Source: Kordiimonas sp.
GTDB lineage: Bacteria; Pseudomonadota; Alphaproteobacteria; Sphingomonadales; Kordiimonadaceae
Direction of reading: 5' to 3'
DNA: 64,000 nt
Assembly (NCBI RefSeq): GCF_048264555.1
Contig: NZ_JBLXCX010000008.1
Coordinates: 16,414 to 80,413 of the forward strand
Positions within the stretch are counted from its first letter, which is position 1. Each line of letters opens with the position of its first letter. Both the position numbers and the translations under genes were made by a program. Positions 20,513 to 45,259 of this stretch are shown here, one piece after another. The notes beneath the pieces were generated by a model. The model worked only from the letters and a program-made list of their open reading frames with translations. It searched no databases and had not been told where the DNA came from.

Positions 20513-20953
20513 TCAAAAAGCGGCGTCCAGAAGCTCCTGCAATTGGCTCTTGTGCTTAGGAGGGATCATGTCGGCGAGGCTGTAGTGGTCCAGCGTTTCG
20601 AAAAAGCTCTCCAGCGCTTCGGCAAGCACCCTCTTTAGCTGGCAGGCCGGAGTGATGATACAAACATTATCTTGTCCGAAGCATTCAACAAGTGGTGAGC
20701 CTTGCTCTATATCCCGCACTAGCTCACCGATATTGATCTCCTTCGGTGCAGATGCCAGCCTGATACCACCGTTCTTGCCCCGTGTGGCCTCAATATACCC
20801 TTTTGCGCTCAGTTGCTGCACGATCTTCATCAGGTGATTTTTGGAGATGTCATAACTTTCCGCAATGTCCCGAATTGTGGCCAGTTTGTCATCGTTGGCT
20901 GCGAGATACATCAGGACACGAAGGGAATAGTCTGTATAGCGGGTGATATGCAT
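20513..20953 (-). CDS. nsrR: Rrf2-family NO-sensing repressor NsrR
   Basis: TDYSLRVLMYLA, RGKNGGIRL and three Fe-S Cys (VECF...VCIITPAC). Confidence 0.9.
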   Translation of the reverse strand: MHITRYTDYSLRVLMYLAANDDKLATIRDIAESYDISKNHLMKIVQQLSAKGYIEATRGKNGGIRLASAPKEINIGELVRDIEQGSPLVECFGQDNVCIITPACQLKRVLAEALESFFETLDHYSLADMIPPKHKSQLQELLDAAF

Positions 20954-20956
20954 AGT

Positions 20957-21370
20957 TCAGGCACTTTCGGGTTTTGACGAGCTGCTTGTTGGCAATCTGT
21001 ACAGATAAACCGAAACAGAAAAGAACAAGGCAGCCAACAGCGTGAGCAGGGGCCATGGCGTGGCCAGATACCAGAGAACAACCCAATTGACCGTCAGCAT
21101 AGCCCAAGCCAGTCGTTTGGCCGCGATGGGTAGGCTGTGCTCCCGTTGCCAGCGCCGGATCGCGGCTCCGTGCCGGGGGTGCGCGACAAGCCATTGCGCG
21201 AACCGCGAGTCCGCTTGTGTCGCTCCCCAGAAGCCTAGTAGCAGAAAAGGTGTTGTAGGTAAAAGCGGCAGGAAAGCGCCCGTGATGCCAAGAGCGAAAC
21301 TCCCAAATGCCAGCAGGCGGTAGAAGCCTCGGCGGTGGTGCGACCAAATGTATCGAATCGTACTTTTCAT
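20957..21370 (-). CDS. YbaN/DUF454 inner-membrane protein
   Basis: GAFLPLLPTTPFLLL and WLVAHPRHG motifs. Confidence 0.9.
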   Translation of the reverse strand: MKSTIRYIWSHHRRGFYRLLAFGSFALGITGAFLPLLPTTPFLLLGFWGATQADSRFAQWLVAHPRHGAAIRRWQREHSLPIAAKRLAWAMLTVNWVVLWYLATPWPLLTLLAALFFSVSVYLYRLPTSSSSKPESA

Positions 21371-21391
21371 CGTCTATCCTCTTGACTTTTT

Positions 21392-21440
21392 AATATGCAT
21401 ATATTTTACATCTTTTAAAGATGTATGTTAAATACATTTT
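21392..21440. promoter_or_regulatory. Two tandem NsrR boxes in the divergent promoter
   Basis: AATATGCATATATTTTACATCTT (21392-21414) and AAGATGTATGTTAAATACATTTT (21418-21440) match the 11-1-11 NsrR consensus AAGATGYAT-N5-ATRCATCTT. Confidence 0.8.
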
Positions 21441-21507
21441 ATAAAGCGAGACACATCACCAATTACTGCGCCCTTGGCTTCGGACATGAAGGGTAAAGGA
21501 GAAGAAA

Positions 21508-22182
21508 ATGACACTGCTGGATACATCGCTGGCACAGTTGGCTCAGGAGCTCCCTGGCGCTACAGCGATATTCAACCATTATAACCTTAGTTTCTGCTGT
21601 GGTGGCAAACACACACTCAGGGAAGCGGCATCAAAGGCATCACTTGACTGTCACGCGCTTGAGGCGGAGTTGTTGCGACTGAGGCCGGAGACAGAGCAGG
21701 ACCATGACTGGACGCAGGCGGAGGATGCCGAGATCATCGCATACCTGCTGAAGCGTTTCCATGAGGTCCATCGCGTGCAGCTTGTGGAGCTGAAGCGGCT
21801 CGCGCACCGGGTAGAAAGTGTGCATGGCGACCGGGAGGAGTGCCCGCATGGCTTGACCGAACACCTGCACCGCATGGCAATGGAACTTGAGCAGCATATG
21901 CAGAAGGAGGAAAGCATTCTCTTTCCTTTGCTGGCTGGTGGGCAGGGTATGATGGCCGGCGGGCCGATACAGGTCATGCTAATGGAGCACGAGGGGCATC
22001 GGGAGGAAGTCGCGCGTATGGATGCGCTGACCGACAACCTGACGTTACCACGCGGTGCCTGCAACACCTGGCGCGCGCTCTACAGTGGTCTTGAAGCCTT
22101 CAAGGCTGATCTTGACGCACATATTCACCTAGAAAACGACGTTTTGTTCGCACGCTATCAGGGAGGGCCCAACCATGGCTAG
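21508..22182 (+). CDS. ytfE: Iron-sulfur cluster repair di-iron protein YtfE/RIC
   Basis: LSFCCGGKHTL, HMQKEESILFP and HIHLENDVLF motifs. Confidence 0.95.
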   Translation: MTLLDTSLAQLAQELPGATAIFNHYNLSFCCGGKHTLREAASKASLDCHALEAELLRLRPETEQDHDWTQAEDAEIIAYLLKRFHEVHRVQLVELKRLAHRVESVHGDREECPHGLTEHLHRMAMELEQHMQKEESILFPLLAGGQGMMAGGPIQVMLMEHEGHREEVARMDALTDNLTLPRGACNTWRALYSGLEAFKADLDAHIHLENDVLFARYQGGPNHG

Positions 22183-24553
22183 ATATTACAGACTCTGGTG
22201 GATACTTATAGCCACTCTTGCCATTACGTTTGGCATCCTGGGGTACTTCGGCAGGGAAGTATACCGAGAGGCACCCCCCATTCCAGGTCTTGTGGTGACG
22301 GAAGATGGCACACCGCTTATGAGCAAGGATAGTATCCTTGATGGCCAAACGGCGTGGCAGTCTGTTGGCGGTATGCAACTTGGCTCCATCTGGGGGCACG
22401 GTGCGTACCAAGCGCCGGACTGGACGGCTGATTGGTTGCACCGTGAGTTGATGGCCTGGCTTGAGCTCGCTGCACAGGATATCTATGGCAAGCCTTATGA
22501 AACTCTGTCGGGTGCGCAGCAGAACAATCTTCAGTATGAGTTGAAACAGGCCTACCGCAGCAACACTTATGATGCCGCAGGCGACATGCTCGTCCTCACT
22601 CAGCGCCGCCAGCGGGCGATCGAACGGACCGCGAACTATTATGACCGGCTGTTTGGTGGTTCGCCCGAACTGCAGCCTACCCGCGAAAGTTATGCTATGA
22701 AGGAGCTCACGCTTCCTGACGCAGACCGCCGTGCAAGGTTGACAGAATTTTTCTTCTGGACCGCATGGGCTGCGTCAACCGAGCGTACGCCGGACGGCGC
22801 AACCTATACTAACAACTGGCCGCACGAACCCTTGGTCGGAAATGTGCCAACGGCGGAGAATGTCGTGTGGTCCATTGTGAGCGTGGTGCTGCTGATCGCT
22901 GGTGTGGGTGGGCTCATCTGGGCTTGGTCCTTCATGCGTGGACAGGATGAAGAGGAGCCTGCGGCCCCTGCCAAAGACCCGCTGACCAGCTTCCGGCTTA
23001 CACCATCGCAACGGGCGCTAGGCAAATATCTCTTTGTTGTCGTGGCGTTGTTTGTCTTTCAGGTTTTCCTGGGAGGGTTTACAGCTCACTATACTGTGGA
23101 AGGGCAAGGATTCTATGGCATTGAGACATCAAAATGGTTCCCCTATACCCTTGTGCGCACTTGGCACATCCAATCTGCTCTGTTCTGGATCGCAACCGGT
23201 TTTCTTGCCGCCGGCCTCTTCCTTGCGCCCATTATCAATGGCGGCAAGGACCCAAAATACCAGAAACTTGGCGTGGATATTCTCTTCTGGGCTCTCATCG
23301 CAGTGGTCGCAGGGTCCTTTATTGGCAACTATCTCGCTATCGCGCAGGTGATGCCGCCGGAATGGAACTTCTGGCTCGGCCATCAGGGCTATGAATACGT
23401 CGACCTTGGACGTCTATGGCAGATCGGCAAGTTCACCGGGGTGGTGCTGTGGCTTGTGCTGATGATGCGTGCCATCGTACCAGCATTAATGCAGCCGGGT
23501 GACAAACACCTGCTGGCGCTCTTTACCGCGTCAGTTGTTGCTATCGGTTTCTTTTACGGTGCTGGCTTTTTCTATGGTGAGCGTACCCATATTTCAGTGA
23601 TGGAATACTGGCGCTGGTGGATAGTGCACTTGTGGGTCGAAGGCTTTTTCGAGGTCTTTGCCACGGCAGCACTCGCTTTCATCTTCAGCAGCATGGGGCT
23701 TGTCTCCAAACGTCTGGCCACGATTGCGGCGTTGGCATCTGCATCGCTCTTTCTCTTGGGCGGTGTACCGGGCACTTTCCACCACCTCTATTTTTCCGGC
23801 ACCACAACACCGGTAATGGCAGTGGGGGCCACTTTCAGTGCACTTGAAGTGGTGCCGCTCATCGTGCTCGGGCACGAGGCCTGGGAACATTGGAAACTTC
23901 GGAACCGTGCGCCCTGGATGGACCAGCTCAAGTGGCCGCTTATGTTCTTTGTCGCTGTGGCTTTCTGGAATATGCTCGGGGCTGGCGTCCTCGGTTTTTC
24001 AATCAATCCGCCGATTGCGCTGTATTACATCCAAGGTCTCAATACCACGGCCACGCACGCACATGCCGCTCTCTTTGGTGTGTACGGCTTCCTTGCGCTT
24101 GGTTTCGCCATTCTGGTGCTGCGTTATATCCGGCCGGCAATGGTTTTTGACGAGAAACTGATGAAAACTGCCTTCTACGGCCTTAATGGTGGGCTTGTGC
24201 TCATGCTGTTCACCAGCCTTTTGCCCGTTGGTATCATCCAGTTTGTCGCCAGTGCATCGGAAGGCCTTTGGTACGCCCGTAGCGAGAGCTTCATGCAGAG
24301 CAATCTGCTCGAAACTTTGCGTTGGGTACGCACCATTGGAGATGTGGTGTTTATCATCGGGGCACTCGCCGTGGCGTGGCAGGTGATCAAGGGCCTCCTC
24401 GACCGTAGTGAACAGCGCCCGCTTGAGAACCAGCCAATACAGCCGGGCATTCATGATAAAATGCCAGCGAGAGCGGCAGTGGGTAGTCAACTGGCTATGA
24501 ATGAGGCCCAGCCGGACAGCATCTGCTGCGGTTCTTGTGGAGGTTCTCATTGA
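22175..24553 (+). CDS. norB: Quinol-dependent nitric oxide reductase (qNor/NorZ)
   Basis: GSIWGHGAYQAPDWTADWLHRE, WWIVHLWVEGFFEVF, GTFHHLYF and HAHAALFGVYG motifs. Confidence 0.95.
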   Translation: MARYYRLWWILIATLAITFGILGYFGREVYREAPPIPGLVVTEDGTPLMSKDSILDGQTAWQSVGGMQLGSIWGHGAYQAPDWTADWLHRELMAWLELAAQDIYGKPYETLSGAQQNNLQYELKQAYRSNTYDAAGDMLVLTQRRQRAIERTANYYDRLFGGSPELQPTRESYAMKELTLPDADRRARLTEFFFWTAWAASTERTPDGATYTNNWPHEPLVGNVPTAENVVWSIVSVVLLIAGVGGLIWAWSFMRGQDEEEPAAPAKDPLTSFRLTPSQRALGKYLFVVVALFVFQVFLGGFTAHYTVEGQGFYGIETSKWFPYTLVRTWHIQSALFWIATGFLAAGLFLAPIINGGKDPKYQKLGVDILFWALIAVVAGSFIGNYLAIAQVMPPEWNFWLGHQGYEYVDLGRLWQIGKFTGVVLWLVLMMRAIVPALMQPGDKHLLALFTASVVAIGFFYGAGFFYGERTHISVMEYWRWWIVHLWVEGFFEVFATAALAFIFSSMGLVSKRLATIAALASASLFLLGGVPGTFHHLYFSGTTTPVMAVGATFSALEVVPLIVLGHEAWEHWKLRNRAPWMDQLKWPLMFFVAVAFWNMLGAGVLGFSINPPIALYYIQGLNTTATHAHAALFGVYGFLALGFAILVLRYIRPAMVFDEKLMKTAFYGLNGGLVLMLFTSLLPVGIIQFVASASEGLWYARSESFMQSNLLETLRWVRTIGDVVFIIGALAVAWQVIKGLLDRSEQRPLENQPIQPGIHDKMPARAAVGSQLAMNEAQPDSICCGSCGGSH

Positions 24554-24563
24554 TGAACCCATC

Positions 24564-24599
24564 CTGCCCGGGGTGTCTGTATGCCCCGGGCAGATTGTT
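24564..24599 (+). terminator. Intrinsic terminator after norB
   Basis: CTGCCCGGGG/CCCCGGGCAG 10-bp stem followed by ATTGTTT. Confidence 0.65.
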
Positions 24600-24607
24600 T
24601 CCAAGAA

Positions 24608-24621
24608 TTGATCCTGCTCAA
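24608..24621 (+). promoter_or_regulatory. FNR-type box
   Basis: TTGAT-CCTG-CTCAA, one mismatch, ~60 bp before ATG 24677. Confidence 0.6.
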
Positions 24622-24676
24622 GCGCCTTTTTCGCTGGCTGTGGTTGTATAGCTGTGCATGGAAGGGAGAATATCCG

Positions 24677-25024
24677 ATGGTAGAGCAATCAGATAGTGGC
24701 AAACCTCTGAATGACCTCGAACGCTATATAGAGATATGTAACGAAGCCTTGGCGCGCAGCTGCGACCAGTTTCCATATAACCGTATATGGCAGGCTGCCA
24801 GCGAAGCGCAGGCTGGCAGGGGCGTTGAATTGGTGTTGGTTGATGAAATGCCGGTTTCAACATGTGAAGTGACTGTTTATAAGGACCATATAGAGCGAGG
24901 ACATGAGGTTGGCGATGCGCCTGTACTGCGCCTGAACAAGAGCTATCTTGAAGATGTGGTCAGCAACCCACAAAAATATATCGACAACCCTACCTTGATA
25001 GATTGGGGTTGGTTGTTCAGGTAG
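24677..25024 (+). CDS. Hypothetical 115-aa protein
   Basis: GGGAG RBS before ATG 24677; C-terminal YLEDVVSNPQKYIDNPTLIDWGWL. Confidence 0.75.
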   Translation: MVEQSDSGKPLNDLERYIEICNEALARSCDQFPYNRIWQAASEAQAGRGVELVLVDEMPVSTCEVTVYKDHIERGHEVGDAPVLRLNKSYLEDVVSNPQKYIDNPTLIDWGWLFR

Positions 25025-25060
25025 CTGGCCATCTGTCGTGAGGATGGATGGCACCATGTG

Positions 25061-26890
25061 TCATGATGCCAGTTTCGTGTTTTTTTCGGCACGTGCCAAC
25101 GGCGAAGACTGTTCTGCCTGCTGTAAATCGGCGTCGTTGGACCAGGCTTTGATATGATGTATGAACTCATTGCTCAGCCGTTCCCTAATTTCCTCTTCTG
25201 CCCAGAAGGGGTTCATGAAGACGCAACGCAACAACACCAGATGGTCATCATCAATTGATCCTCCGTACCCGACTACATGACGCTGGATAACCTTGTGATG
25301 TGAGCTCATGGAAAGAGTTGTCTTTGAGACTGAAAAGTCCGGGCAATCGACAAATTTTTGAAATACAGTGCTGGTCAGCCTGTTAGCTTCACGCAGTGAT
25401 TTTGCCTTGGTGGTTAGAGAGAAACACATGATATTTGTTTCGACTGGGGTGAGGATATGCGCTGTAGGGATGGCTTTCTCGATCTTCTGTTTCACTGCCC
25501 GGCAGGCGTGGATCGTCTGTTCGATCACGGCACCAAGCCCCTTCGGGTTGAAGCCGAGCGTTTTTCCAGTCAGCCATGTGGCAGCAGCACCGGCTGCTGA
25601 GCGCGAGCCCTCAAGCGTCGTAGACCATTTGTCTGGCATTTCCTGTTGGCGTTCGAGGTATGGGGCCTTGAATCCAGAGACGGAATAGGCTTCGTGGTCG
25701 CGGGTGACGATGGCGCCGCAGGCATAGGGCACATAGCCAAGTTTGTGCGGATCTATGGTGACCGAATGCACCTCGGAAATCGAGTTGAGTGCGGCGCTGT
25801 TAGAAACGCTCAGCACCTGTGAACTTGCACCGCCCCGAAGGAGGGTGCATAGGAAACCACCATAAGCCGCATCCACATGATGCCAAATATCCCAGCCTCG
25901 GCGATCTTTCTGGGCATTCAGGATGCCTTGCACCTGGTCTATCGGGTCAATTTCGCCGGTCTCAGTGGTGCCGGCTACGCTCACGACCATGATGATTGGC
26001 CGTTTGGAGCGCTCGGCAACTTCGATTAGCTTTTGCAGAGCGGCAACGTCCATCTTGCCCATGCCGTCGAGGGGAACAGGCCAGAAGGCCTCCTCACCAA
26101 GACCAAAAATATTTACCGCCTTGGTCCAGGAAAAATGCTTGTTCTCTGGCACCAGCAGTACTGGGCCACGATAAGGTATACCGAAAGCGCGGGTCATGCG
26201 TTCGCCAAAGAGGTAGGGGTTGCTTGCCACTGCGCTGCAGCGCTTTAGGGAGTCAATTGGGACACTGTGCTTACAGAGCAACTGGCCAAAGCGTTTCCAG
26301 CCCATATGGGCGGCATCAAACAGGTCAAGTGTTAAACCACGATTTTCCGCGAGGTAAAGCGCCAGGCTCAGCCAGTGATCTTGGCGGAAGCGCGCGCGCC
26401 ATACAGCCTCGAAATTAGCAACCGTGCCGCCCCCGGTTATATGGCCTGTGGCCCGGGCTGGGTTGAACCCCAGCATTTTTGCCAGCATAGCAATAACTTC
26501 TACCTCGACCTTTGAGCCGATGTTGGAGGCGTCACGACTTGTGTTATTGGGGTTGTGCAGCAGCATGGCAAAGTGGCCAAGTAAGGACGGGAGCGTCAGC
26601 TCCGAGACCATATGGCCGATATAACGCGGTGGAAATTTAGGGACTTCTGCCTTCAGCATCTCGTTGAGTTCCTCAAGGCCCTGACTAATGCGTTCCCTCG
26701 CTCTGAGGTAGCCCGGTGACCGTCGATCCTCGGGGCTGGATACACTTGGGTCATTGGTGAAAAGCTGTTTTCGCCAATGGAACCAGTGGTCAAGAGTAGC
26801 TTGGAACTCTGCTCTGACCCAAGCTTCGTTTTCTGCCTTGGGGCCGAGGAAGTAGGCCTGATATGCATTCGAGTGCGCACTGGTTTCCAT
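25061..26890 (-). CDS. Group II PLP-dependent decarboxylase (tyrosine-decarboxylase-like)
   Basis: FLGPKAEN, GHITGGGTVANFEAVW, KHFSWTKA, HVDAAYGG and IDPHKLGYVPY (PLP lysine). AGGAG RBS before ATG 26890. Confidence 0.88.
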   Translation of the reverse strand: METSAHSNAYQAYFLGPKAENEAWVRAEFQATLDHWFHWRKQLFTNDPSVSSPEDRRSPGYLRARERISQGLEELNEMLKAEVPKFPPRYIGHMVSELTLPSLLGHFAMLLHNPNNTSRDASNIGSKVEVEVIAMLAKMLGFNPARATGHITGGGTVANFEAVWRARFRQDHWLSLALYLAENRGLTLDLFDAAHMGWKRFGQLLCKHSVPIDSLKRCSAVASNPYLFGERMTRAFGIPYRGPVLLVPENKHFSWTKAVNIFGLGEEAFWPVPLDGMGKMDVAALQKLIEVAERSKRPIIMVVSVAGTTETGEIDPIDQVQGILNAQKDRRGWDIWHHVDAAYGGFLCTLLRGGASSQVLSVSNSAALNSISEVHSVTIDPHKLGYVPYACGAIVTRDHEAYSVSGFKAPYLERQQEMPDKWSTTLEGSRSAAGAAATWLTGKTLGFNPKGLGAVIEQTIHACRAVKQKIEKAIPTAHILTPVETNIMCFSLTTKAKSLREANRLTSTVFQKFVDCPDFSVSKTTLSMSSHHKVIQRHVVGYGGSIDDDHLVLLRCVFMNPFWAEEEIRERLSNEFIHHIKAWSNDADLQQAEQSSPLARAEKNTKLAS

Positions 26891-26894
26891 AAGC

Positions 26895-28172
26895 CTAACT
26901 CCTGTCACATATGGCTGAGGTGAAGGGAATGCAGTCCACCAACTCGCCTTTGGCTACCGCATCCACCCCCTCGGGGATAACAATCCAGGCATCGCTGCGT
27001 CCAAATGGCGCGGTTTGGAAAGACTGTTGCCTTGCGTCGGCGGTCACGTGTAGTTGTCCTGTCTCATTTGTGGTGAGCTTGCCCATGAGGAACGTAGTCT
27101 TAGCTGAAGCGCCGCGGACCTCATTGGTCAGCCGAGCTGCCAGCGACCGTTCATGTGCGACACCAGAAAGCAAGTGAGCGAAAGGCTTCACAAAGGCTCC
27201 GAGTGCCAGCGCAGTCGAGATCGGGTTGCCAGGCAGACCGAAGAAATATTTACCGCCGGGCAAAGTTGCAAAAAGGATCGGTTTTGCCGGTTTTATCCGC
27301 ACTCGGTGCACGTGGATGCGGGCACCAAAATCTTCCAGTACCGGTTTTACAAAATCATACTGCCCTGCCGACACACCACCGGTGGACAAGATGATGTTGG
27401 CATCCCCTTCAAGTGCGGTTTCAAGTGCTGCCGCGAAATCTTGCGGGGTGTCACGCACAGTAGTGGCGTTGGTAAACTCGACGCCCATGTCCTCACACAC
27501 TGATTGCCCATAAAGTGCGGTAGCATTGTAGATATGCCCGGGCGCAAGCGGTTTGGTGAAGTCATCACTGATTTCTTGCCCGGTGCTTATCCAGCATGCC
27601 TTCGGTCTTTCGAATACCATCACCGATGCAGCGCCACTTGCGCACAGCATGGGCAGGTGTGCGGCCTTGATTCGGGTCCCAGCCTCGAGAAGTAAATCGT
27701 TTGTCGCTATGTCCTGCCCCACAAGGCGGACATGCCTGCCTTTCGGGTATGGGCTTGTGAAGGTCAGGTTTTCGTGATCCCAGCTTGCGGCTTCGACCGG
27801 CATCACGGTGTCCGCGCCGTCAGGCATGGGTGCGCCCGTCATGATCTTTGCTGCCCGCCCGGACACAAGATGGGAGAGACCTGCCGTATCCCCCGCAATG
27901 CTGGCGCCCACGACTAGGAGAGACACAGGCGCATCCTCCGACGCCGCAGCTACGTCTGCGGAGGCAAAGGCGAAGCCGTCCATCGCGCTATTCTCAAAAC
28001 TGGGTACCGCGATCGATGCGTGGATATCAGTAGCCAACACTTTCCCTAGGGCTGCGGAGAGAGGCACCAGGTGCGGTGCTAAAACCTCGGCCGTATCACA
28101 GATAGCCGCAAGGCTGTCTGTGTAGGATTGCATAACCAGTGTATCGGAGCGGATGGGGGCTTGCGCATTCAT
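26895..28172 (-). CDS. moeA: Molybdopterin molybdenumtransferase
   Basis: SAMDGFA, IMTGAPMPDGADTV, STGGVSAG and FGLPGNP motifs; ATGA coupling with mobA. Confidence 0.95.
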   Translation of the reverse strand: MNAQAPIRSDTLVMQSYTDSLAAICDTAEVLAPHLVPLSAALGKVLATDIHASIAVPSFENSAMDGFAFASADVAAASEDAPVSLLVVGASIAGDTAGLSHLVSGRAAKIMTGAPMPDGADTVMPVEAASWDHENLTFTSPYPKGRHVRLVGQDIATNDLLLEAGTRIKAAHLPMLCASGAASVMVFERPKACWISTGQEISDDFTKPLAPGHIYNATALYGQSVCEDMGVEFTNATTVRDTPQDFAAALETALEGDANIILSTGGVSAGQYDFVKPVLEDFGARIHVHRVRIKPAKPILFATLPGGKYFFGLPGNPISTALALGAFVKPFAHLLSGVAHERSLAARLTNEVRGASAKTTFLMGKLTTNETGQLHVTADARQQSFQTAPFGRSDAWIVIPEGVDAVAKGELVDCIPFTSAICDRS

Positions 28173-28726
28173 TGGCAGCACCTTTCGTTTGCGTGAGCGG
28201 GATGGCTGTAAGGGAGATCACCCAGATGATTGAGGTTACGGAAAGCACGGTCCGCGAAGGCCGGTACAGTCAGGAGCGTTGCTTTGTTTGCGCTGAGCAG
28301 ATCACGTAAGCGCGGACCGCTACCTGAAACTATTTCACCCCCGATGGCGGTGAAGGGGAAAACGTAACCATCATACCTTGTCCAATGAGTAACTGATGCA
28401 AGCGGTGCGAGCAGGGCCGGGCTCAGATAGGGCATATCGATAGGTACGACAACATGCCGCTGTCCGGCGCCGGCAGCACGCAGATAGCTCAGAAGGGCGG
28501 GGACCGGCCCAGCAAAAGGCGTTTCATCGGCCACGCCATCTTCAACATCCGGTTTGCCGAGTATGACAACGCGGTCTACACCAGCCTTGAAGAGCAGAGC
28601 GCGCATATGATCGAGCAGCGTGCTGTTGCCCCAGGGTAATGTGGCTTTGTCGTGACCCATACGGCGTGATGCGCCGCCCGCCAGAATGACGCCTAAACAG
28701 CCGCTGTGTGGAAGAGAGCTCAGCAT
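28169..28726 (-). CDS. mobA: Molybdenum cofactor guanylyltransferase
   Basis: VILAGGASRRMGHDKA, GPVPA, DMPYL and NLN motifs. Confidence 0.85.
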   Translation of the reverse strand: MLSSLPHSGCLGVILAGGASRRMGHDKATLPWGNSTLLDHMRALLFKAGVDRVVILGKPDVEDGVADETPFAGPVPALLSYLRAAGAGQRHVVVPIDMPYLSPALLAPLASVTHWTRYDGYVFPFTAIGGEIVSGSGPRLRDLLSANKATLLTVPAFADRAFRNLNHLGDLPYSHPAHANERCCQ

Positions 28727-28728
28727 AA

Positions 28729-29706
28729 TTAGCCTCCGATGGCGGAAAGGTTGCGGGTCATTCCAGCATTACCGAAAGCAAGTTGATGGTTGGCATCCTT
28801 GCTACGCACGGCAGAGATGAGCCTTTCCCGTAGCTCCTCAAATTGTTCGTCAGACTGCAGATAGTCGCGTAGAGGAATGCCAAAGTTTCCAAATAAACAC
28901 AGGTGTAGATTGCCCTGACTCGAGAAGCGCAACCGATTACAACTTTTGCAGAAATCTTTGGAATAGGGCGCGATAAGGCCGATCCTCCCAGCGTGGTTGG
29001 TGTGCATGAATTCATTGGCCGGGCCGCTATCCGCCGCTTTGATGGTTGGGGCCCAGCCGAGTATTTTCAACCGATCAGCGATCACGTCGGTGGAAATATG
29101 GTGGTTACGGAAAAAAGCCGCATGATCGCCAGTTTCCATCAACTCGATGAAGCGGATGGAGACAGGAAGGGTTTTTGTGAGCGTTATAAAGTCCGCCACT
29201 TCGTGATCATTGATATCCTTCATATAAACCACGTTAATCTTCACATCGCTGAATCCCGCCTCTAGCGCCCGATGGATTCCGTGAAGCACTTCATGGCAAC
29301 GGTCGTGGCCAGTGATGCGTCTGAATGCTTCCCGGTTCAGGCTGTCGAGGCTCACGTTGATGGCGTTGAGCCCAAGTCCATGCCAGCGTTCCACGCGTTC
29401 GTGTAGCCTGTAGCCGTTGGTGGTAAGGGCGAGTTTCTTCAGCCCGCCCACCGTGCTGATGTCGGCGACGATATCGTCGAAATCCGGCCGGATGGTTGGT
29501 TCGCCGCCGGTTAGCCTGATTTTCCTAAGTCCAAGTGAAACAAAAGCCCTGGCGGCGCGACGCAATTCGTCCCTACTCAGGGGTGGCGGGGAACCACATT
29601 TCTTGAAACCTTCCGGCAGACAGTAGCTACAGCGAAAATTGCAGGCGTCTGTCACCGACAGGCGCAGATACTGGAATGTGCGATCGAAACCGTCCGTCAG
29701 GTGCAC
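28729..29706 (-). CDS. moaA: GTP 3',8-cyclase
   Basis: YLRLSVTDACNFRCSYC, RLTGGEP and FCKSCNRLR...LCL motifs; AGGAG RBS before GTG 29706. Confidence 0.95.
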   Translation of the reverse strand: MHLTDGFDRTFQYLRLSVTDACNFRCSYCLPEGFKKCGSPPPLSRDELRRAARAFVSLGLRKIRLTGGEPTIRPDFDDIVADISTVGGLKKLALTTNGYRLHERVERWHGLGLNAINVSLDSLNREAFRRITGHDRCHEVLHGIHRALEAGFSDVKINVVYMKDINDHEVADFITLTKTLPVSIRFIELMETGDHAAFFRNHHISTDVIADRLKILGWAPTIKAADSGPANEFMHTNHAGRIGLIAPYSKDFCKSCNRLRFSSQGNLHLCLFGNFGIPLRDYLQSDEQFEELRERLISAVRSKDANHQLAFGNAGMTRNLSAIGG

Positions 29707-29711
29707 AGCAG

Positions 29712-29845
29712 ATCTCCTTTCCAATCACGAGAGGCTTGGCAGTTTCCCTATCAAACCCGGCGGCGTTGTGCCGCGGCCCCGGTGCCATATTCTGAGTAAG
29801 GGGAGCCCGAACGTAGGCACCGAGGCTTCGGAGTTGAGCACTCGA
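29712..29845 (-). ncRNA. Moco (molybdenum cofactor) riboswitch
   Basis: Minus strand reads ACTCCGAAGC...CCTACG...TATGG...GGAAAC...GCCTCTCGTGATTGGAAAGGAG, the conserved elements of the Moco RNA motif, ending on the moaA RBS. Confidence 0.75.
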
Positions 29846-29880
29846 GATCTGTTTGTTAGCGCGATAGAGGACGGGGAGGT

Positions 29881-29894
29881 TTGATGCAGATCAA
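29881..29894 (-). promoter_or_regulatory. FNR-type box for the moaA operon
   Basis: Perfect TTGAT-GCAG-ATCAA. A -41.5 centring predicts a start near 29846, the riboswitch 5' end. Confidence 0.85.
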
Positions 29895-29896: not shown

Positions 29897-31507
29897 TTAG
29901 TTGCGAAATGAGATATCGCTTAGTTCGGGACGAGGGCATTCTTCGGTGCTGGCGCGTACGCACTGGATGGCAAGTTCCACATCACAAAATTCACATAGAG
30001 AGAAAGGATCCGGAGCTATCACATGGTCACTAGAGACTTCGAAGCCATCCTGCTTGAACTTTTGCAGAGTTCTTGAAAAGGTTTCAGGGCGCATGTCCAG
30101 ATAGGAGGCTATGATCGACTTTTCATAAGGAAGATATATTGTGCCGTCGGGCGTGCGCTGGTTGAGTGCAAGCCTAAGCAAAAACCAGCCAACCCGTTCC
30201 TGGGCGGTTTTGAGGCGAGAAAGCTCCAGCTGCTGCACCAAGCGCTGTGAACGCAATGAAACGGTATTAAGCATGCTGACAGCGAGTTGTGGACTGGATT
30301 GTATGCGCTGGCGGATAACGGGTGCGGGGATGGAGAGTAGCAATGCGTTTTCAACAACTTGAGCGCTTACGGGAGTAGGTACATCGAGGAAAACAGCGGC
30401 CTCTAGTAGTGTTTCTCCGCTCCCTAGCATCTGGAGGATTGCTTCCTCGCCGGTCTCCAGTCCGTTGTAGACCTTCACCCAGCCTTGTAAAACGACATAG
30501 AGCCGTGTGGCAGGCTCGTCTCGTAAGAACAATAGCTTGTCTTTTTCATATTCGCGGATCTGAGCGAAGGATAAAAGTTCGTCCAACTCGTGGTCATCGA
30601 TTGCAGCGAGCATGGGTAGCGACTTAAGAAACGGCCGATACTGTGTAATCTGGGCTACTGCTCCTTTTTGCCGCGTCGCAGGCGCGGGCGAATTTGCTGG
30701 TTTGGCGGCAGTTTGCACTAGGCCCTCTACCAGCTTTTGCTCTGCCTCTCTCAGTCCATCGATCATGCGGGACAGGAGCTCAAACCATGCTTCGCCTGTA
30801 TATTTTTCGATTTCACCGAGTGGTGCGCCATCTTCCAGAAGGGTGTTCACTTCGGCTAGGGCATCAAAATCGCCTGCTTCGACATGTTCCTCTACAATCT
30901 GGATCTGGTCAGCAGAGGCAAGCGCTTTAAATGTCTCGAAATAGGCTTTCTGCTCGGCGATGAGAGCGACGAAACGGTCGCAAAATTCCTGATTCCGGAA
31001 TGAATAGGTGTGGAAGCCGCGCGCTCCTAGTGCCCGTTCCATGCCGAGGCGCTCTTTCCATTGCAGGAAGTTGGAATAGGCTGAAACAAGTTTCGAGTCG
31101 TAGCCTTCCTGTCGCTGTGCCAGTTCGATCATTATGTCGATTGTGGGCACGGTGAAGGAGAATGTATAGGTGTTCAGCGCCTGAGTGTAGCGGTAAGCCA
31201 GCAGGCGTATTTTATCTCGCGTTTGGTCGATTTGCTCAAATTTGTTGATTAGGGGCATCAGACGGTCGGACCAAAAACCGTTGGGCAACCCCTTTTTTGC
31301 TTCGTCGCGTGCAAGGAAGGTGCGCAGCTCAGCCACAGCGTCGTTCACCCGGCCATTTTGGGTGTCGTATTGACGCGCAAAGATTTTACCAAGGCTGTCG
31401 AGGAAAAGGCCAGCACAGCCGCGCTCGCGCTGAAGCTGATGAACAGTCTCGCCCAGCTTGTTCAGCAGGCTTCCTGCCAGGTCAGTTTTCTCTGTCACTA
31501 TGCTCAA
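29897..31507 (-). CDS. NIT-domain (nitrate/nitrite sensing) + Crp/Fnr transcriptional regulator fusion
   Basis: N-terminal VHQLQRERG and WKERLGMERA (NIT), cNMP-binding domain (VVLQGWVKVY...GETLLEAAVF), HTH IASYLDMRPETFSRTL, and Cys-rich tail. Confidence 0.85.
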   Translation of the reverse strand: MSIVTEKTDLAGSLLNKLGETVHQLQRERGCAGLFLDSLGKIFARQYDTQNGRVNDAVAELRTFLARDEAKKGLPNGFWSDRLMPLINKFEQIDQTRDKIRLLAYRYTQALNTYTFSFTVPTIDIMIELAQRQEGYDSKLVSAYSNFLQWKERLGMERALGARGFHTYSFRNQEFCDRFVALIAEQKAYFETFKALASADQIQIVEEHVEAGDFDALAEVNTLLEDGAPLGEIEKYTGEAWFELLSRMIDGLREAEQKLVEGLVQTAAKPANSPAPATRQKGAVAQITQYRPFLKSLPMLAAIDDHELDELLSFAQIREYEKDKLLFLRDEPATRLYVVLQGWVKVYNGLETGEEAILQMLGSGETLLEAAVFLDVPTPVSAQVVENALLLSIPAPVIRQRIQSSPQLAVSMLNTVSLRSQRLVQQLELSRLKTAQERVGWFLLRLALNQRTPDGTIYLPYEKSIIASYLDMRPETFSRTLQKFKQDGFEVSSDHVIAPDPFSLCEFCDVELAIQCVRASTEECPRPELSDISFRN

Positions 31508-31662
31508 GCTTCAAGCGTCCCGGGCGCATTTCCACAAATGCCAAGCGTGCCATTCGTAAGTGTTCCAACCATAAAAGTAGTGCGCAATTTTGTCTACACA
31601 ATGCCATCGGCGACGTCCTTCCCATATGAGAAACACCACCATGCCGAAGAAAACGGTGGTGC

Positions 31663-31676
31663 TTGATATGGATCAA
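31663..31676 (+). promoter_or_regulatory. FNR-type box for the narK-nar operon
   Basis: Perfect TTGAT-ATGG-ATCAA. Confidence 0.85.
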
Positions 31677-31742
31677 TCACGAATTTCCGTAAGCCGTCAC
31701 AATGTCCTCCATAACCGGATAACCCCATGTCAGGAGGACAAG

Positions 31743-33053
31743 GTGAACGGCACTATGACAACACCACTGGAAAAGCGTCGCGCACTAACCGCGAGCACGC
31801 TGGCTTTTACCGTTTGTTTCGCTGTTTGGACAATTTTTTCCATTATTGGTGTCAAGATTAAGGCTGACTTGGGCCTGAGCGACACCCAGTTCGGTGTGCT
31901 TGTGGCGACGCCGGTGCTAACAGGATCGCTTAGTCGGCTTTTCCTCGGCATCTGGACCGACCAATATGGTGGCCGCATGGTCTATGTTCTGCAAATGCTG
32001 GCTACAGCGCTTGCTGCCTATCTTCTGACCCTGGTGACGACATACGAAATGTTCCTCGTTGCGGCCCTCGGGGTTGGTCTGGCGGGTGGCAGCTTCGCGG
32101 TCGGGGTGGCTTACGTCTCGCGCTGGTATCCGAAAGAGCAACAGGGTACTGCGCTCGGCATCTTCGGTATGGGCAACGTCGGCGCTGCCGTCACCAACTT
32201 CGCAGCGCCGCTCCTTTTAGTCGTGCTCGGGGGTGCGTGGCAAAGTGTGGCACAGGTTTATGCAGTCACACTCGCGGTAACTGCTGTGCTGTTCTTCATT
32301 TTTACCAAAGATGATCCTGTTCATGCTTCGAACAAGCTGACAGGTGCTAAACACCCCTCTTTCGTCGAGCAGCTCGAGCCACTCAAGAACCTGCAGGTTT
32401 GGCGCTTCTCGCTATATTACTTCTTTGTGTTCGGGGCCTATGTCGCGCTCGCACTTTGGCTCCCTCGCTACTATGTCGGTGCTTACGGACTCGAGTTGGC
32501 AACCGCTGGCATGCTTGCTGCCGCGTACGCGTTGCCTGGCTCAATCTTCCGGGCGTTTGGTGGTTGGCTGTCCGATAAGTACGGCGCCCGCGCGGTCATG
32601 TACTGGACGTTCATTGCCAGTGTTGCTTGCACCTTCATAATGTCATATCCGGCCACAGATTATACCGTCGCGGGCATCACAGGACCCATTAACTTCAACA
32701 TTACTATTCCGCTTGAAGTGTTTGTGGGACTGACAATCATTCTTGGCTTCTTCATGTCGCTCGGTAAAGCCGCTGTCTACAAGCACATCCCCGTCTATTA
32801 TCCGGATCATGTGGGTTCAGTCGGTGGCATGGTGGGACTGATAGGTGGCCTTGGCGGCTTCTTCCTGCCGATCACCTTTGGCATGATGAATGATTTTATT
32901 GGTGTATGGACCAGTTGCTTCATGCTGCTGACTATCCTTGTTGCCATTGCCCTGACATGGATGCACTTCGCCATCCGTCGGCTTGATAAGAAACGCATTC
33001 CCGAGCTTCGCGGCCCCCGCAATCTGCCGGAACTTGAAGGGCTCAAGGGCTGA
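31743..33053 (+). CDS. narK: NarK1-type nitrate transporter (MFS)
   Basis: AFTVCFAVWTIFSIIG and GIFGMGNVGAA motifs; AGGAGG RBS before GTG 31743. Confidence 0.9.
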   Translation: MNGTMTTPLEKRRALTASTLAFTVCFAVWTIFSIIGVKIKADLGLSDTQFGVLVATPVLTGSLSRLFLGIWTDQYGGRMVYVLQMLATALAAYLLTLVTTYEMFLVAALGVGLAGGSFAVGVAYVSRWYPKEQQGTALGIFGMGNVGAAVTNFAAPLLLVVLGGAWQSVAQVYAVTLAVTAVLFFIFTKDDPVHASNKLTGAKHPSFVEQLEPLKNLQVWRFSLYYFFVFGAYVALALWLPRYYVGAYGLELATAGMLAAAYALPGSIFRAFGGWLSDKYGARAVMYWTFIASVACTFIMSYPATDYTVAGITGPINFNITIPLEVFVGLTIILGFFMSLGKAAVYKHIPVYYPDHVGSVGGMVGLIGGLGGFFLPITFGMMNDFIGVWTSCFMLLTILVAIALTWMHFAIRRLDKKRIPELRGPRNLPELEGLKG

Positions 33054-33092
33054 GGCCCTTGTCTCCCTCTCGGTCCGACAAGGAGAAGAACT

Positions 33093-34736
33093 ATGTTTGA
33101 AAAGAAACAGAATATGGAATTGCAGGTCAAAGGCCGCGATCTCTATGGCTGGAACCCTGATGACGACGCTCAGTGGGCGTCAGTGGGCCAGAAGATAGCC
33201 AGCCGAAACCTGTGGATCTCGATCCCGTCGCTCTTGTGCGGCTTCGCGGTCTGGCTTTATTGGGGCATCATTACGGTGCAGATGCTGAACCTTGGGTTTC
33301 ATTTCTCGCGTGATGAACTGTTCTCTCTTACAGCTATCGCCGGGCTTTCCGGTGCCACCCTGCGCATTCCGAGTTCGTTTTTTATCCGTCTGGCGGGAGG
33401 GCGGTACACCATCTTTTTAACCACCACCTTGCTTATCGTTCCGGCCGCAGCTGCAGGGTTTCTTCTTCAAGATGTGAATACACCATTGTGGCAGTTTCAA
33501 CTGGTGGCCTTGCTGTCTGGCTTAGGTGGCGGCAACTTCGCGTCTTCGATGTCAAATATTAGTTTCTTCTATCCGCGTAAGATACAGGGGTATGCGCTAG
33601 GTATGAATGCGGGCCTCGGCAATTTCGGTGTCACGACGATGCAGATATTGGTGCCGCTGGTGATGACCTTTGCACTATTCGGCGGCGATAGCATGACGTT
33701 GCAGGCCATGTCCGGCACGTTGATTGGCAAAATACCTGCCGGTACAGAGACCTATATCTTCAACGCCGGTTGGGTTTGGTTGCTGCTTTTGATCCCTCTG
33801 GCTTTTGCCACCTGGTTTGGCATGAACACTATCCGGGACGAGCATGTTTCGCCAGATACTGACAGTGCGGTTTCAGCTTTTAGCAAAATTTGCGGATTGT
33901 TGTTAATCGGCTTTGCCACGGCGGCTTTTGGGTTGTGGTTAATGCTGCCGGCTAGCTTTGGCGGCTCCGGTTGGGAAGTGTCGAAATTCATCGTGTTACC
34001 GCTGGTGATTGCGTTGACAGTCTTTGCCATGAAACTAATTCCCGGCAGAATCCAGACAAATCTGGCACGTCAGTTTAAGATTTTTGGTAACAAGCATACT
34101 TGGTCGATGTCGCTCATCTATACGATGACCTTTGGTTCTTTTATTGGCTTTTCAGCCGCGCTGCCATTGGCGATTAAGGTGGTGTTTGGATATCAGCATC
34201 TCCTGGTAGAAGGGGTAATGACCCACACGACGCCGAACCCCAGTGGGCCCAGTGCACTGATGTATGCGTGGATGGGGCCCTTTATCGGCGCATTAGTTCG
34301 GCCTGTCGGCGGCATGTTGGCTGATCGTTGGGGCGGGGCACGTGTAACGCAAATCATTAGCGTGATCATGGCTGGGGCCGCACTGGGTGTCGCTTACTAT
34401 ATGAAAGCAGCCTACGGTTCGGCCACACCGGAAGATTATTTCTGGCCATTCCTGGTCCTGTTCATCGTGCTGTTTGCCGCCACAGGTGTTGGCAATGGCT
34501 CCACCTTCCGAACTATCGCCATGGTTTTTGATAAGGAACAGACCGGCCCTGTTTTGGGTTGGACGTCGGCGGTTGCTGCCTATGGAGCGTTCTTCATTCC
34601 GCAGGTGTTTGGTGAACAAATCAAAGCCACGACCCCAGAATTCGCACTGTACGGTTTCACCATTTTCTATGGCGTTTGCATCTTGACCAACTGGTGGTTC
34701 TACCTGCGCAAAAACGCCTACGTGCAGAATCCATAA
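33093..34736 (+). CDS. narK: NarK2-type nitrate/nitrite antiporter (MFS)
   Basis: WNPDDDAQW...IASRNLWISI, GGGNFASSM and GVGNGSTF motifs. Confidence 0.9.
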   Translation: MFEKKQNMELQVKGRDLYGWNPDDDAQWASVGQKIASRNLWISIPSLLCGFAVWLYWGIITVQMLNLGFHFSRDELFSLTAIAGLSGATLRIPSSFFIRLAGGRYTIFLTTTLLIVPAAAAGFLLQDVNTPLWQFQLVALLSGLGGGNFASSMSNISFFYPRKIQGYALGMNAGLGNFGVTTMQILVPLVMTFALFGGDSMTLQAMSGTLIGKIPAGTETYIFNAGWVWLLLLIPLAFATWFGMNTIRDEHVSPDTDSAVSAFSKICGLLLIGFATAAFGLWLMLPASFGGSGWEVSKFIVLPLVIALTVFAMKLIPGRIQTNLARQFKIFGNKHTWSMSLIYTMTFGSFIGFSAALPLAIKVVFGYQHLLVEGVMTHTTPNPSGPSALMYAWMGPFIGALVRPVGGMLADRWGGARVTQIISVIMAGAALGVAYYMKAAYGSATPEDYFWPFLVLFIVLFAATGVGNGSTFRTIAMVFDKEQTGPVLGWTSAVAAYGAFFIPQVFGEQIKATTPEFALYGFTIFYGVCILTNWWFYLRKNAYVQNP

Positions 34737-34762
34737 TCGAAAAGAGGATCTGGAGAAACATC

Positions 34763-37700
34763 ATGAGCAACTTTATCGACAGGCTCTCTTATTTTAGCAA
34801 GTCTCCCGAAACATTTTCGGACGGCCATGGCATCACCACCGATGAGGATCGCTCATGGGAGAAAGCCTATCGAGGCCGCTGGTCCCACGACAAAGTGGTG
34901 CGGTCCACTCACGGCGTCAACTGCACGGGCTCTTGCAGCTGGAAAATCTATGTCAAGAACGGCCTTGTGACTTGGGAAACCCAGCAAACGGATTACCCAA
35001 AAACACGGCCCGACCTGCCTAACCACGAACCACGTGGATGCGCCCGGGGAGCGAGCTATAGCTGGTATCTTTATAGCGCGGCACGGCTGAAATACCCGAT
35101 GGTGCGCGGCCGTCTCATCGAGCTATGGCGTAAGGCAAAGGCCGAACTTGGCGACCCGGTTGATGCCTGGGGTAGCATTGTATCCGATCCGAAGAAGGCA
35201 CGTGAGTACAAGAAGGTGCGCGGCCTTGGTGGTTTTGTGCGCGCAAGCTGGGACGAAGTGAACGAGCTGATCGCCGCCTCCAATGTCTACACAGCGAAGG
35301 AACACGGGCCGGACCGGATTGTGGGTTTCTCACCCATACCAGCCATGTCCATGGTTTCCTATGCTGCGGGCAGCCGTTACCTGTCGCTCATTGGCGGAGT
35401 GTGCATGTCCTTTTATGACTGGTACTGCGATCTGCCGCCGTCATCGCCACAAACATGGGGCGAGCAAACGGATGTGCCTGAAAGCGCGGACTGGTACAAT
35501 TCGGGTTATATCATTGCCTGGGGTTCGAACGTGCCACAAACACGTACGCCGGATGCGCACTTCTTCACTGAGGTACGTTACAAGGGCACCAAGACCGTTT
35601 CCGTCACGCCTGACTATTCCGAAGTAGCGAAGCTGACAGACATTTGGCTCAACCCACGTCAAGGCACGGATAGCGCCATGGCTATGGCCATGGGCCATGT
35701 GGTGTTGAAGGAGTTCCACACGGCTGGCAAGTCGGAGTATTTTGACGACTATTGCCGCATGTATACCGATATGCCGTTCCTCATACGTCTTGACGAGAAA
35801 GATGGCAAATTGGTGCCGGGCCGCCTACTGCGTGCGTCCGATATGAAAAACGCTCTTGGCGAAGCCAAAAACGCCGAATGGAAGGCTGTCATCCTTGATG
35901 GCAATACGGGCGACGTGTGTGTGCCAAATGGCACTATCGGTTCACGCTGGGACGAAAGCCGCAAGTGGAACCTTGAGTTAAAGAATGTGGCGGACGGCAG
36001 TGATGTCTGGCCGAAAGTTACCCTCGTTGAGAGCAGCGACACAGTCGAGGCTGTGGCGTTCCCGTATTTCGGTAATATCGTCAACGACCAGCCTATCTTC
36101 AAACATACCGACCACGGTAGCGTGCTTGAGCGCAATGTACCTATCAAGACGATTGAGACTAAGGACGGCCCAGTGAAGGTGGCGACGGTTTTTGACCTGA
36201 TGGTTGCGAACTATGGTGTGGACCGTGGTCTGGGTGGTGACAATGTAGCCGCAAGCTATGACGACGATGTACCCTATACTCCGGCATGGCAGGAAAAAAT
36301 CACTGGCGTAGACCGTCGCAAGGTCATTCAAGTTGCTCGCGAGTTTGCCACCAATGCGGACCAGACGCGGGGTCGCTCAATGGTGATCCTCGGCGCCGCC
36401 GTCAATCACTGGTACCACATGGACATGATCTATCGGGGTATCATGAACCTCTTGATCATGTGCGGCTGTGTGGGCAAGTCGGGAGGTGGTTGGGCCCACT
36501 ATGTGGGGCAGGAAAAGCTGCGTCCGCAGACGGGCTGGCAACCATTAGCCTTCGGGCTGGATTGGTCGCGTCCGCCTCGGCACATGAACTCCACGAGCTT
36601 CTTCTACAACCACTCAAACCAGTGGCGGTATGAAAAGCTTGACGTGGATGAAATCCTCTCCCCGCTTGCGGATAAGGAGAAGTGGAAGAATACCACACTC
36701 CTGGACTGCAATGTTCAATCCGAACGCATGGGCTGGTTGCCTTCTGCACCCCAACTCAATGACAACCCGTTAAGGGTCGCCAGAGCTGCGGAAAAGGCAG
36801 GAGTAAAAGCTGCCGACTATGTAGTAGACAAATTGAAGTCAGGCGAGCTGGCCTTTGCCTGTGAAGATCCGGATGATCCGAAAAACTTCCCACGCAATAT
36901 GTTTATCTGGCGTTCGAATATCCTGGGTTCGTCAGGTAAGGGGCATGAATATATGCTCAAGCATCTGCTTGGCACCCAGCATGGCCTTCTTGGTAAGGAT
37001 ATGGGGGAAACCGGCGGCTTAAGGCCGAGCGAGGTCGTGTGGCATGACGAAGCACCCGAAGGCAAACTCGATCTGGTGGTCACGCTCGACTTCCGTATGT
37101 CTACCACATGCGTGTATTCGGATATCGTTCTGCCCTCTGCCACTTGGTATGAGAAGAACGACCTCAACACGTCTGACATGCATCCCTTCATCCACCCGCT
37201 GACTCGCGCAGTAGACCCAGCATGGGAAAGCCGCAGTGACTGGGACATATACCGAGGTCTGGCTGAGAAATTCTCGGAGGTTTGTGTCGGTCACCTTGGT
37301 GTTGAGAAGGATGTGGTCACCTTGCCAATCTTGCACGATACGCCGGGCGAAATGGCCCAGCCACTTGGTGTCACTGACTGGAAGAAGGGTGAATGTGAGC
37401 CCATCCCAGGTAAGACCATGCCTTCCATCATTGAAGTAGAGCGGGACTACCCCAACACCTACAAGCGTTTCATCGCGCTCGGCCCGCTCATGAGCAAGGT
37501 CGGCAACGGCGGCAAGGGCATTGCCTGGAACACGGAAGAGGAAGTGGAGCTTCTCGGCCGATTGAACGGTGTGCATGACGAGACCGGTGCCAATGAAGGC
37601 ATGCCTATGATCGTGACGGACGTGAATGCGACCGAGGTTGTGCTTTCGCTCGCGCCAGAAACCAATGGCCAAGTGGCGGTCAAGTCTTGGGCAGCGCTCG

Positions 37701-38509: not shown

Positions 38510-38520
38510 GAGTAGATGAG

Positions 38521-40077: not shown

Positions 40078-40751
40078 ATACGATCAAACTTCTAGGGATG
40101 CTTCTTTCCTACCCGAGTGTGGAGTTGCAACAGCACGCGGGTGAGATCAGGGAAGCCATTGCAGGTGACGGACTTTTGCCCGCCAAGCTGCACAAGCCGC
40201 TATTCGCCTTAATCGACGATCTGGGTCGACGCAATCTGCTGCGCCTGCAGGAGGAATATGTCGCAACTTTTGACCGCTCACGTGTGCATTCACTTTACCT
40301 GTTTGAGCATGTGCACGGTGAAAGCCGGGACCGTGGTCAGGCCATGGTTGATCTCATGGGGCTGTATAAAACTGCCGGAATCAAGCTCGCGCAACGTGAA
40401 CTGCCAGATTATCTACCAGTGTTTCTTGAATTCCTGTCTCTCCGTCCATTTGATGAGGCGCAGGATTATCTTGGCGAGGTTGCCCACATACTTGAGGCGA
40501 TTGGGGCAAAACTGAAACTGCGTAAGAACCCGTACCAGCATGTGTTCAGGGCACTTGTGGCCCTGACGAATGTCAAAATCGACCCAAAATTTGTTGAACA
40601 GGCAGTTGAGGATGCCCGCCGTGAGGATACGAGCCTCGCTGCGCTTGACAAAGAGTGGGAAGAAACACCGGCCTTCGACGGCATTGGTGCGGATTGCTCG
40701 GTATGCCCGCAAGGCACACCGGCCAAACCCCGCCAAACCGCAACGCATTAG
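40074..40751 (+). CDS. narJ: Nitrate reductase maturation chaperone
   Basis: SLYLFEHVHGESRDRGQAMVDL and ELPDYLPVFLEFL motifs. Confidence 0.95.
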   Translation: MNTIKLLGMLLSYPSVELQQHAGEIREAIAGDGLLPAKLHKPLFALIDDLGRRNLLRLQEEYVATFDRSRVHSLYLFEHVHGESRDRGQAMVDLMGLYKTAGIKLAQRELPDYLPVFLEFLSLRPFDEAQDYLGEVAHILEAIGAKLKLRKNPYQHVFRALVALTNVKIDPKFVEQAVEDARREDTSLAALDKEWEETPAFDGIGADCSVCPQGTPAKPRQTATH

Positions 40752-40765
40752 AATAGGAGCGGGAT

Positions 40766-41449: not shown

Positions 41450-41451
41450 TC

Positions 41452-41904: not shown

Positions 41905-41934
41905 GCTGGTGCGATACGGCTTAGGGTCAGCAAG

Positions 41935-42588: not shown

Positions 42589-42631
42589 GAAAGGTGGAAA
42601 AATACATGTATTCTTCATATTTTTCATCGAC

Positions 42632-42645
42632 TTGACTTGGATCAG
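42632..42645 (+). promoter_or_regulatory. Degenerate FNR-type box
   Basis: TTGAC-TTGG-ATCAG, ~60 bp before the porin start. Confidence 0.45.
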
Positions 42646-42705
42646 TCCAGGGCTTGGGAGAAGGCCCTAAAACGAGGAAGTTCGGTGGTTTAAAGGAGAC
42701 AAGCC

Positions 42706-45245: not shown

Positions 45246-45259
45246 TTGATCCAGATCAA
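45246..45259 (+). promoter_or_regulatory. FNR-type box
   Basis: Perfect TTGAT-CCAG-ATCAA, ~65 bp before ATG 45325. Confidence 0.85.

Follow-up and report, generated by a model that had tools for sequence, protein, structure and literature searches.

A tyrosine decarboxylase-like enzyme at the end of a molybdenum cofactor operon of Kordiimonas as a probable member of the low-oxygen FNR/FixK regulon

The 64,000-nt stretch of the Kordiimonas sp. genome analyzed here (the window) encodes a 609-aa group II pyridoxal 5'-phosphate (PLP)-dependent decarboxylase of the TyrDC (tyrosine decarboxylase)/ncAAAD type (25061..26890, minus strand; ATG at 26890; PF00282, E value of 4e-35) as the last gene of an operon for synthesis of the molybdenum cofactor (Moco). 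In marine bacteria that respire nitrate and feed on peptides, this enzyme probably belongs to the FNR/FixK low-oxygen regulon as a stand-alone member, with its place outside Moco synthesis. The assignment is drawn from sequence data, namely, the layout of the operon, the FNR boxes, the co-occurrence with narG, the protein fold, and the intact set of PLP catalytic residues. It removes a false lead to a new Moco enzyme and defines an uncharacterized TyrDC/ncAAAD-like clade of marine Alphaproteobacteria and Bdellovibrionota that is kept under FNR boxes and whose occurrence tracks nitrate respiration. The clade comprises ∼60 clusters at 50% identity (above 430 bits), and no characterized member of it was found in the literature. 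If the assignment is correct, nitrate-respiring peptide degraders in low-oxygen marine environments would give off aromatic amines without an antiporter, and current models of the FNR regulon miss a member.

The operon starts with a perfect FNR/FixK-type box, TTGATGCAGATCAA (29881..29894; 0 mismatches in the pattern scan, upstream of the minus-strand operon), followed by a Moco riboswitch aptamer (29698..29845, minus strand; Rfam RF01055, 72 bits against the gathering threshold of 36, E value of 2e-15). The box is centered at 29887.5, so that the -41.5 class II spacing, reported together with the alphaproteobacterial FNR consensus (PMC7713065), would put the transcription start at ∼29846, which by this arithmetic is the 5' end of the riboswitch. 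The 3' side of the riboswitch P1 contains the ribosome-binding site (RBS; AGGAG) and the GTG start codon of moaA, the layout described for translational control in Escherichia coli (PMC2408646); because the riboswitch covers the moaA RBS, it would not need to control the fourth gene. The first three genes are moaA (GTP 3',8-cyclase; 28729..29706, minus strand; GTG start at 29706; TIGR02666, 334 bits against the cutoff of 284), a mobA-like gene for Moco guanylyltransferase (28169..28726, minus strand; PF12804, E value of 2e-23 but under the NCBIfam cutoffs), and moeA (molybdopterin molybdotransferase; 26895..28172, minus strand; all three MoeA Pfam domains matched), whose ATG at 28172 overlaps the end of mobA (ATGA).

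The moeA-decarboxylase junction reads GACAGGAG-TTAG-GCTT-ATG. As stated in the first-pass annotation, which had also recognized the FNR- and riboswitch-controlled operon, a gap of 4 nt separates the moeA stop codon from the start of the decarboxylase gene, which has its own RBS, AGGAG, located 8 nt 5' of the ATG. This junction is not an assembly artifact, because a contig from the independent metagenome run X1, which covers positions 24383-27763, crosses it. Cotranscription of moeA and the decarboxylase gene from the FNR promoter, proposed in the same annotation, is likely; an internal promoter was considered and rejected, as a sigma70 scan and the FNR pattern, scans that are weak in Alphaproteobacteria, detected neither a sigma70-like site nor an FNR box within moeA. 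One metatranscriptome yielded short contigs with a depth of 2 to 3 on the decarboxylase, moeA, and moa genes, none of those listed bridging the junction; these data, with their possible DNA content, were not used. The gene beyond the decarboxylase is convergent and codes for a 115-aa hypothetical protein. A 10-bp hairpin with a T-rich tail on the plus strand spans the decarboxylase stop codon (25049..25085, plus strand; RNAfold); it was not called by the terminator scan and is therefore weak but represents a possible terminator between the two convergent genes.

The position of the gene had raised the idea that it plays a role in cofactor metabolism. Judged by gene content, the decarboxylase takes no part in Moco synthesis, because moaA is present in all 61 related genomes, as opposed to the decarboxylase orthologue in 10, and the operon position is kept in only 3 of the 15 informative nar-linked moa operons. 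This last count includes the window and 14 informative loci from the 17 other nar-linked moaA loci that were fetched. In 2 of these 14 operons (G002 and G007), moeA is followed by the decarboxylase gene, in 7 it is followed by unrelated genes, and 5 contain no moeA within the operon. Five genomes (G001, G008, G019, G023, and G035) retain the riboswitch-moaA-moeA operon or a nar-linked moaA but carry the decarboxylase gene elsewhere. The 4-nt coupling to moeA in the window, tight coupling in two other species, and the presence of moeA within 8 kb in 11 loci could still be taken to indicate a role in Moco (or ubiquinone) metabolism. Such a role is very improbable, given that 51 of the 61 moaA-containing genomes and 12 of the 14 other operons lack the decarboxylase, which, moreover, is found just as tight against ubiV, ubiM, nrdD/J, and nnrS. 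PLP chemistry requires an amino acid substrate, and none is known from the Moco pathway. Participation in a ubiquinone step was rejected as well, as ubiU was found in only 7 of the 10 carriers and PLP cannot act on 4-hydroxybenzoate. A search for carriers without Moco genes was nondiscriminating, since all 5 Maricaulis genomes carry moaA.

Recurrence of the linkage in other genomes, which had been put forward as a check, was seen in part: two other species share the moeA adjacency, but the tree suggests a single inherited arrangement. In a quick tree with SH-aLRT support, constructed with no clade test, the three moeA-linked copies fall inside one Kordiimonas clade or branch off at its base, and a derived clade (SH-aLRT of 99) is formed by the five copies linked to kbl-tdh. 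This topology suggests that the moeA adjacency was inherited once and followed by a move to kbl-tdh. A search for a remnant at the kbl-tdh site of the window genome revealed no gene trace and no box. The nar-island moaA is a second copy, the housekeeping one being located at C2:900014, and the riboswitch was present in all 7 nar-linked moaA operons of sister Kordiimonas genomes that were tested. The 2008 description of the Moco riboswitch did not list Alphaproteobacteria. Several nar-linked Moco operons have lost moeA or mobA (G010, G022, and G024).

The orthologues of the decarboxylase provide evidence for low-oxygen control. Exact matches to the alphaproteobacterial box pattern TTGAY-N4-RTCAA (PMC7713065) within 250 nt upstream of the decarboxylase start were found in 18 of the 45 orthologue loci, as opposed to 0.024 expected from shuffles, and in none of the 240 control windows inside the gene. 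Among the loci with their own box are the five kbl-linked Kordiimonas copies, without exception, and four copies from Maricaulis that have no anaerobic neighbor. Another 14 loci are found beside hemN, nrdD/nrdJ, ubiM/ubiUV, nnrS, or moa genes, several of them with a box at the operon head. The most common neighbors in the 49 GTDB loci and the window are nnrS (12 loci), moeA (11), hemN (11), nrdD (10), nrdG (9), nrdJ (8), and ubiM (7), and distant relatives of the decarboxylase have either nirK and nnrS or a Crp/Fnr gene as neighbors. In the whole 3.98-Mb genome, the FNR motif has 19 sites, which mark hemN, ompW, usp genes, narK, and ubiT. A member of the FNR/FixK regulon should be preceded, alone or as part of its operon, by a box that recurs in orthologues, and this is what was found. 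The remaining 13 of the 45 loci, with neither a box nor an anaerobic neighbor, weigh against such control; together with the highly variable gene order, they would fit the view that the gene entered the island by chance and is functionally unrelated to low oxygen. That explanation is extremely improbable in view of the box enrichment, which extends over at least four lineages whose flanks differ, and of the fact that the decarboxylase tracks narG even at a distance of at least 200 kb. In the Maricaulaceae (10 loci), nrdD-nrdG or nrdJ interchangeably follow the decarboxylase, with an FNR-like box of their own ∼1.71 kb from the decarboxylase start. A role as a partner of NrdD was rejected, since NrdD was not found in the 61 Kordiimonadales-side genomes.

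The suggested link to nitrate respiration held up. Among 37 Kordiimonadaceae genomes, the decarboxylase is encoded in 9 of the 14 narG-positive ones and in 1 of the 23 narG-negative ones. In other words, narG is present in 9 of the 10 carriers, and the genome of the sole exception is 80% complete. In addition, narG was found in 9 of the 10 carriers tested from Maricaulaceae and Robiginitomaculum. Two points should be set against this association: the Fisher test (p of 1.4e-4) is not corrected for kinship, which inflates its significance, as related genomes are not independent, and five narG-positive genomes have no decarboxylase, so that the enzyme must be dispensable. The closest named orthologues, with 67 to 72% identity, come from Kordiimonas lacus, K. 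lipolytica, and K. marina; cultured carriers exist in these three species as well as in Hyphobacterium and Maricaulis. The proposal that the enzyme supplies CO2 to the carbonic anhydrase found no support, as a carbonic anhydrase gene is found near the decarboxylase in only 3 loci, all of them within the nar block.

Membership of the protein in the group II PLP decarboxylases is clear from its PF00282 score of 121.6 bits (cutoff, 27 bits). Residues His93, Met94, His252, Asp340, Lys383 (the PLP lysine), Tyr389, Tyr411, and Met559 are invariant in 116 homologues, and His252, Asp340, His382, and Lys383, which cover the PLP lysine and the His/Asp PLP ligands, are invariant in 116 of 116. In Lactobacillus brevis TyrDC (LbTDC), the aligned counterparts of the first set, other than that of Asp340, are His98, Met99, His241, Lys392, Tyr398, Tyr420, and Met588. 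Because the catalytic residues are invariant, the protein is very likely an active decarboxylase. Its AlphaFold model (pLDDT of 89.5) matches the L. brevis and Enterococcus faecalis TyrDCs and the fungal PcncAAAD over the whole length (TM scores of 0.82 to 0.84, 25 to 27% identity), as opposed to ∼0.6 for the other group II types (GAD, PanP, and DABA); the best structures are ncAAAD 6EBN and TyrDC 5HSJ/7CWY, and sequence and profile searches agree with this match. A rather likely reaction of the protein is therefore the release of CO2 from an aromatic L-amino acid (Tyr or Phe, possibly also DOPA or Trp), with formation of the corresponding amine.

Several features weigh against this reading. 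The identity to characterized enzymes is only 25 to 27%, and the TyrDC model TIGR03811 gives 224 bits, far below its equivalog cutoff of 905. In the sequence alignment of the pocket, Val122/Ala123 of LbTDC are replaced by Thr117/Ser118 and Ser586 is replaced by Val557. The corresponding Val131/Ala132 pair is part of the hydrophobic pocket of PcncAAAD (PMC13062060), and Ser586 of TyrDC is a substrate contact (PMC4904194). These comparisons make an aromatic substrate likely without guaranteeing that it is tyrosine. The polar Thr117 and Ser118 of the pocket loop recur in 110 and 100 of the 116 sequences, respectively, which would suit an enzyme of the same regulon that acts on a nonaromatic substrate (Glu, Asp, His, Ser/Thr, or a diamine precursor) and forms, e.g., GABA, beta-alanine, or an amino alcohol. 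A DAACS/SDF symporter gene after one relative and the adjacency of five Kordiimonas copies to kbl-tdh point the same way. This version is improbable, as the whole-length fold match is to TyrDC/ncAAAD alone and the kbl-tdh position represents a single derived clade, in which the decarboxylase and regulator genes diverge and the former is preceded by an FNR box of its own. The genome also encodes PanD, so that a role as a PanD substitute was rejected.

If the decarboxylase does belong to the FNR/FixK regulon, low oxygen would turn the operon on through FnrL/FixK or through the adjoining NIT-Crp protein described below. The Moa, Mob, and Moe proteins would then supply NarG, and the product of the fourth gene would decarboxylate an aromatic amino acid. 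Here, the decarboxylase would borrow the FNR promoter of the nar-island moaA-mobA-moeA genes; elsewhere, it would rely on its own FNR box or on other FNR-controlled operons. With the O2-dependent HppD route stopped, decarboxylation could provide an oxygen-free, redox-neutral exit for Tyr and Phe, and the lipophilic amine could leave the cell without a dedicated antiporter. Such disposal of Tyr and Phe during nitrate-to-nitrite respiration is the leading physiological option, albeit a tentative one. It fits the presence in the window genome of HppD and PanD, no copper amine oxidase having been detected there, and the fact that the usual neighbors HemN, NrdD/NrdJ, and UbiUV are O2-independent stand-ins for O2-dependent steps. 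On the other side of the balance, the substrate and the role are deduced from homology and context. As the first-pass annotation noted, no amino acid/amine antiporter gene adjoins the decarboxylase in the window, where the next gene is the convergent one for the 115-aa protein; an APC permease is encoded within 8 kb in only 2 of the 49 loci. The gene arrangement typical of TyrDC-based acid resistance is thus absent here.

The main alternative is that the same regulon membership serves protection from nitrite, HNO2, or NO (nitric oxide), either through proton consumption with an unlinked exporter or through removal of nitrated aromatics, such as 3-nitrotyrosine. The window genome encodes Nar, Nap, and qNor, but NirK, NirS, full-length NirB, and NrfA were not found in a whole-genome search, so that nitrite should accumulate, and qNor is probably used for NO detoxification. 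Furthermore, nnrS is the commonest neighbor, 9 of the 13 family carriers that were tested have its island type (>52% identity), as opposed to 2 noncarriers, a distant relative of the decarboxylase is encoded between nirK and nnrS, and ytfE, qNor, and nsrR adjoin the decarboxylase region. Nevertheless, this protective role is unlikely: the boxes are of the FNR type, common to hemN and nrd promoters, qNor is present in only 3 other carriers, and no paper was found that ties such an enzyme to nitrite stress. The pH form would also suffer from the lack of a linked antiporter, as export of the neutral amine would be expected to cancel the proton gain. Still less probable is that the whole clade is dedicated to nitrite/NO stress, with nitrotyrosine decarboxylated in the Thr/Ser/Val pocket or the amine buffering or scavenging nitrous acid; if this is true, the response of bacteria to nitrosative stress would gain a new arm next to NnrS and YtfE.

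Directly upstream of the operon, a gene on the minus strand (29897..31507) codes for a NIT-domain Crp/Fnr regulator (PF08376, PF00027, and PF13545), a candidate nitrate-sensing reader of the FNR box alongside FnrL/FixK. It is flanked by FNR boxes on both sides (29881 and 31663), and almost every nar island fetched has it at this place, between narK and the Moco operon (41 to 78% identity). The adjoining plus-strand segment (31590..44000), which contains the box at 31663, comprises narK1, narK2, and narGHJI and the genes for a PPIase-like protein, a beta-carbonic anhydrase, and an alginate-export-type porin. Downstream of the decarboxylase, an NO-stress block (20513..25024) consists of nsrR, DUF454, ytfE, qNor, and the gene for the 115-aa protein (24677-25024, plus strand), which has a near-box at 24608. 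A paralogue of this protein (54% identity) adjoins hemN and a Crp/Fnr gene on contig C1, under an FNR box; an Atlas match of 0.89 hints at SCP2 (12% of members), which is a lead only. Runs X1, X5, and X11 part from the window at 20475, just outside nsrR, which suggests that this position is the left edge of the island or the site of a strain-variable insert.

Further along, a perfect FNR box is followed by genes for an NAD-dependent epimerase/3-beta-HSD-like protein, a B12-binding radical SAM protein, and a metallo-beta-lactamase-fold protein (45246-48564, plus strand), inserted between nnrS and ubiV. The segment 56019-61253 (minus strand), where the GC skew is reversed, encodes a secreted protein of 1,002 aa that matches no Pfam family; TPR and lipoprotein-like genes come after it. 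Two tandem, similar-looking open reading frames of 366 and 324 aa at 4969-7269 (plus strand) presumably resemble DUF2336 proteins.

The combination of a riboswitch, FNR box, and moa genes is already known: in the E. coli moaABCDE operon, an FNR box is likewise followed by a riboswitch over the moaA RBS (PMC2408646). In Kordiimonas, by contrast, the genes are moaA-mobA-moeA, they form a second copy in the nar island, and a non-Moco gene is appended in three species. The Fnr regulon of Sphingopyxis granuli TFA has the same box consensus and -41.5 spacing and shares nar, moeA, ubiTUV, nrdZ, hemN, and nnrS as members; the word "decarboxylase" is absent from the main text of that paper (PMC7713065). 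PcncAAAD from Psilocybe cubensis (PDB 6EBN; PMC13062060), which accepts Phe, Tyr, Trp, and kynurenine, is the best profile match (E value of 5e-98, TM score of 0.84), and both enzymes have Val at the position equivalent to Ser586. However, the identity is 25%, and the bacterial protein has Thr/Ser in place of Val131/Ala132 and does not have the 300-aa C-terminal domain. The TyrDCs of L. brevis (PDB 5HSI/5HSJ; PMC4904194) and E. faecalis (7CWX-7CX1), the TIGR03811 family, have the same group II fold of ∼600 aa from end to end (TM scores of 0.82 to 0.83), and their catalytic Tyr398 and Tyr420 are kept as Tyr389 and Tyr411. They differ in sequence (26 to 27% identity, 224 of 905 bits, and the replacement of Val122 by Thr, Ala123 by Ser, and Ser586 by Val) and in gene context, as neither a tyrosine/tyramine antiporter gene nor tyrS adjoins the Kordiimonas gene. 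Finally, whereas those TyrDCs come from fermenting Firmicutes, the clade described here occurs under FNR boxes in marine Alphaproteobacteria and Bdellovibrionota that respire.

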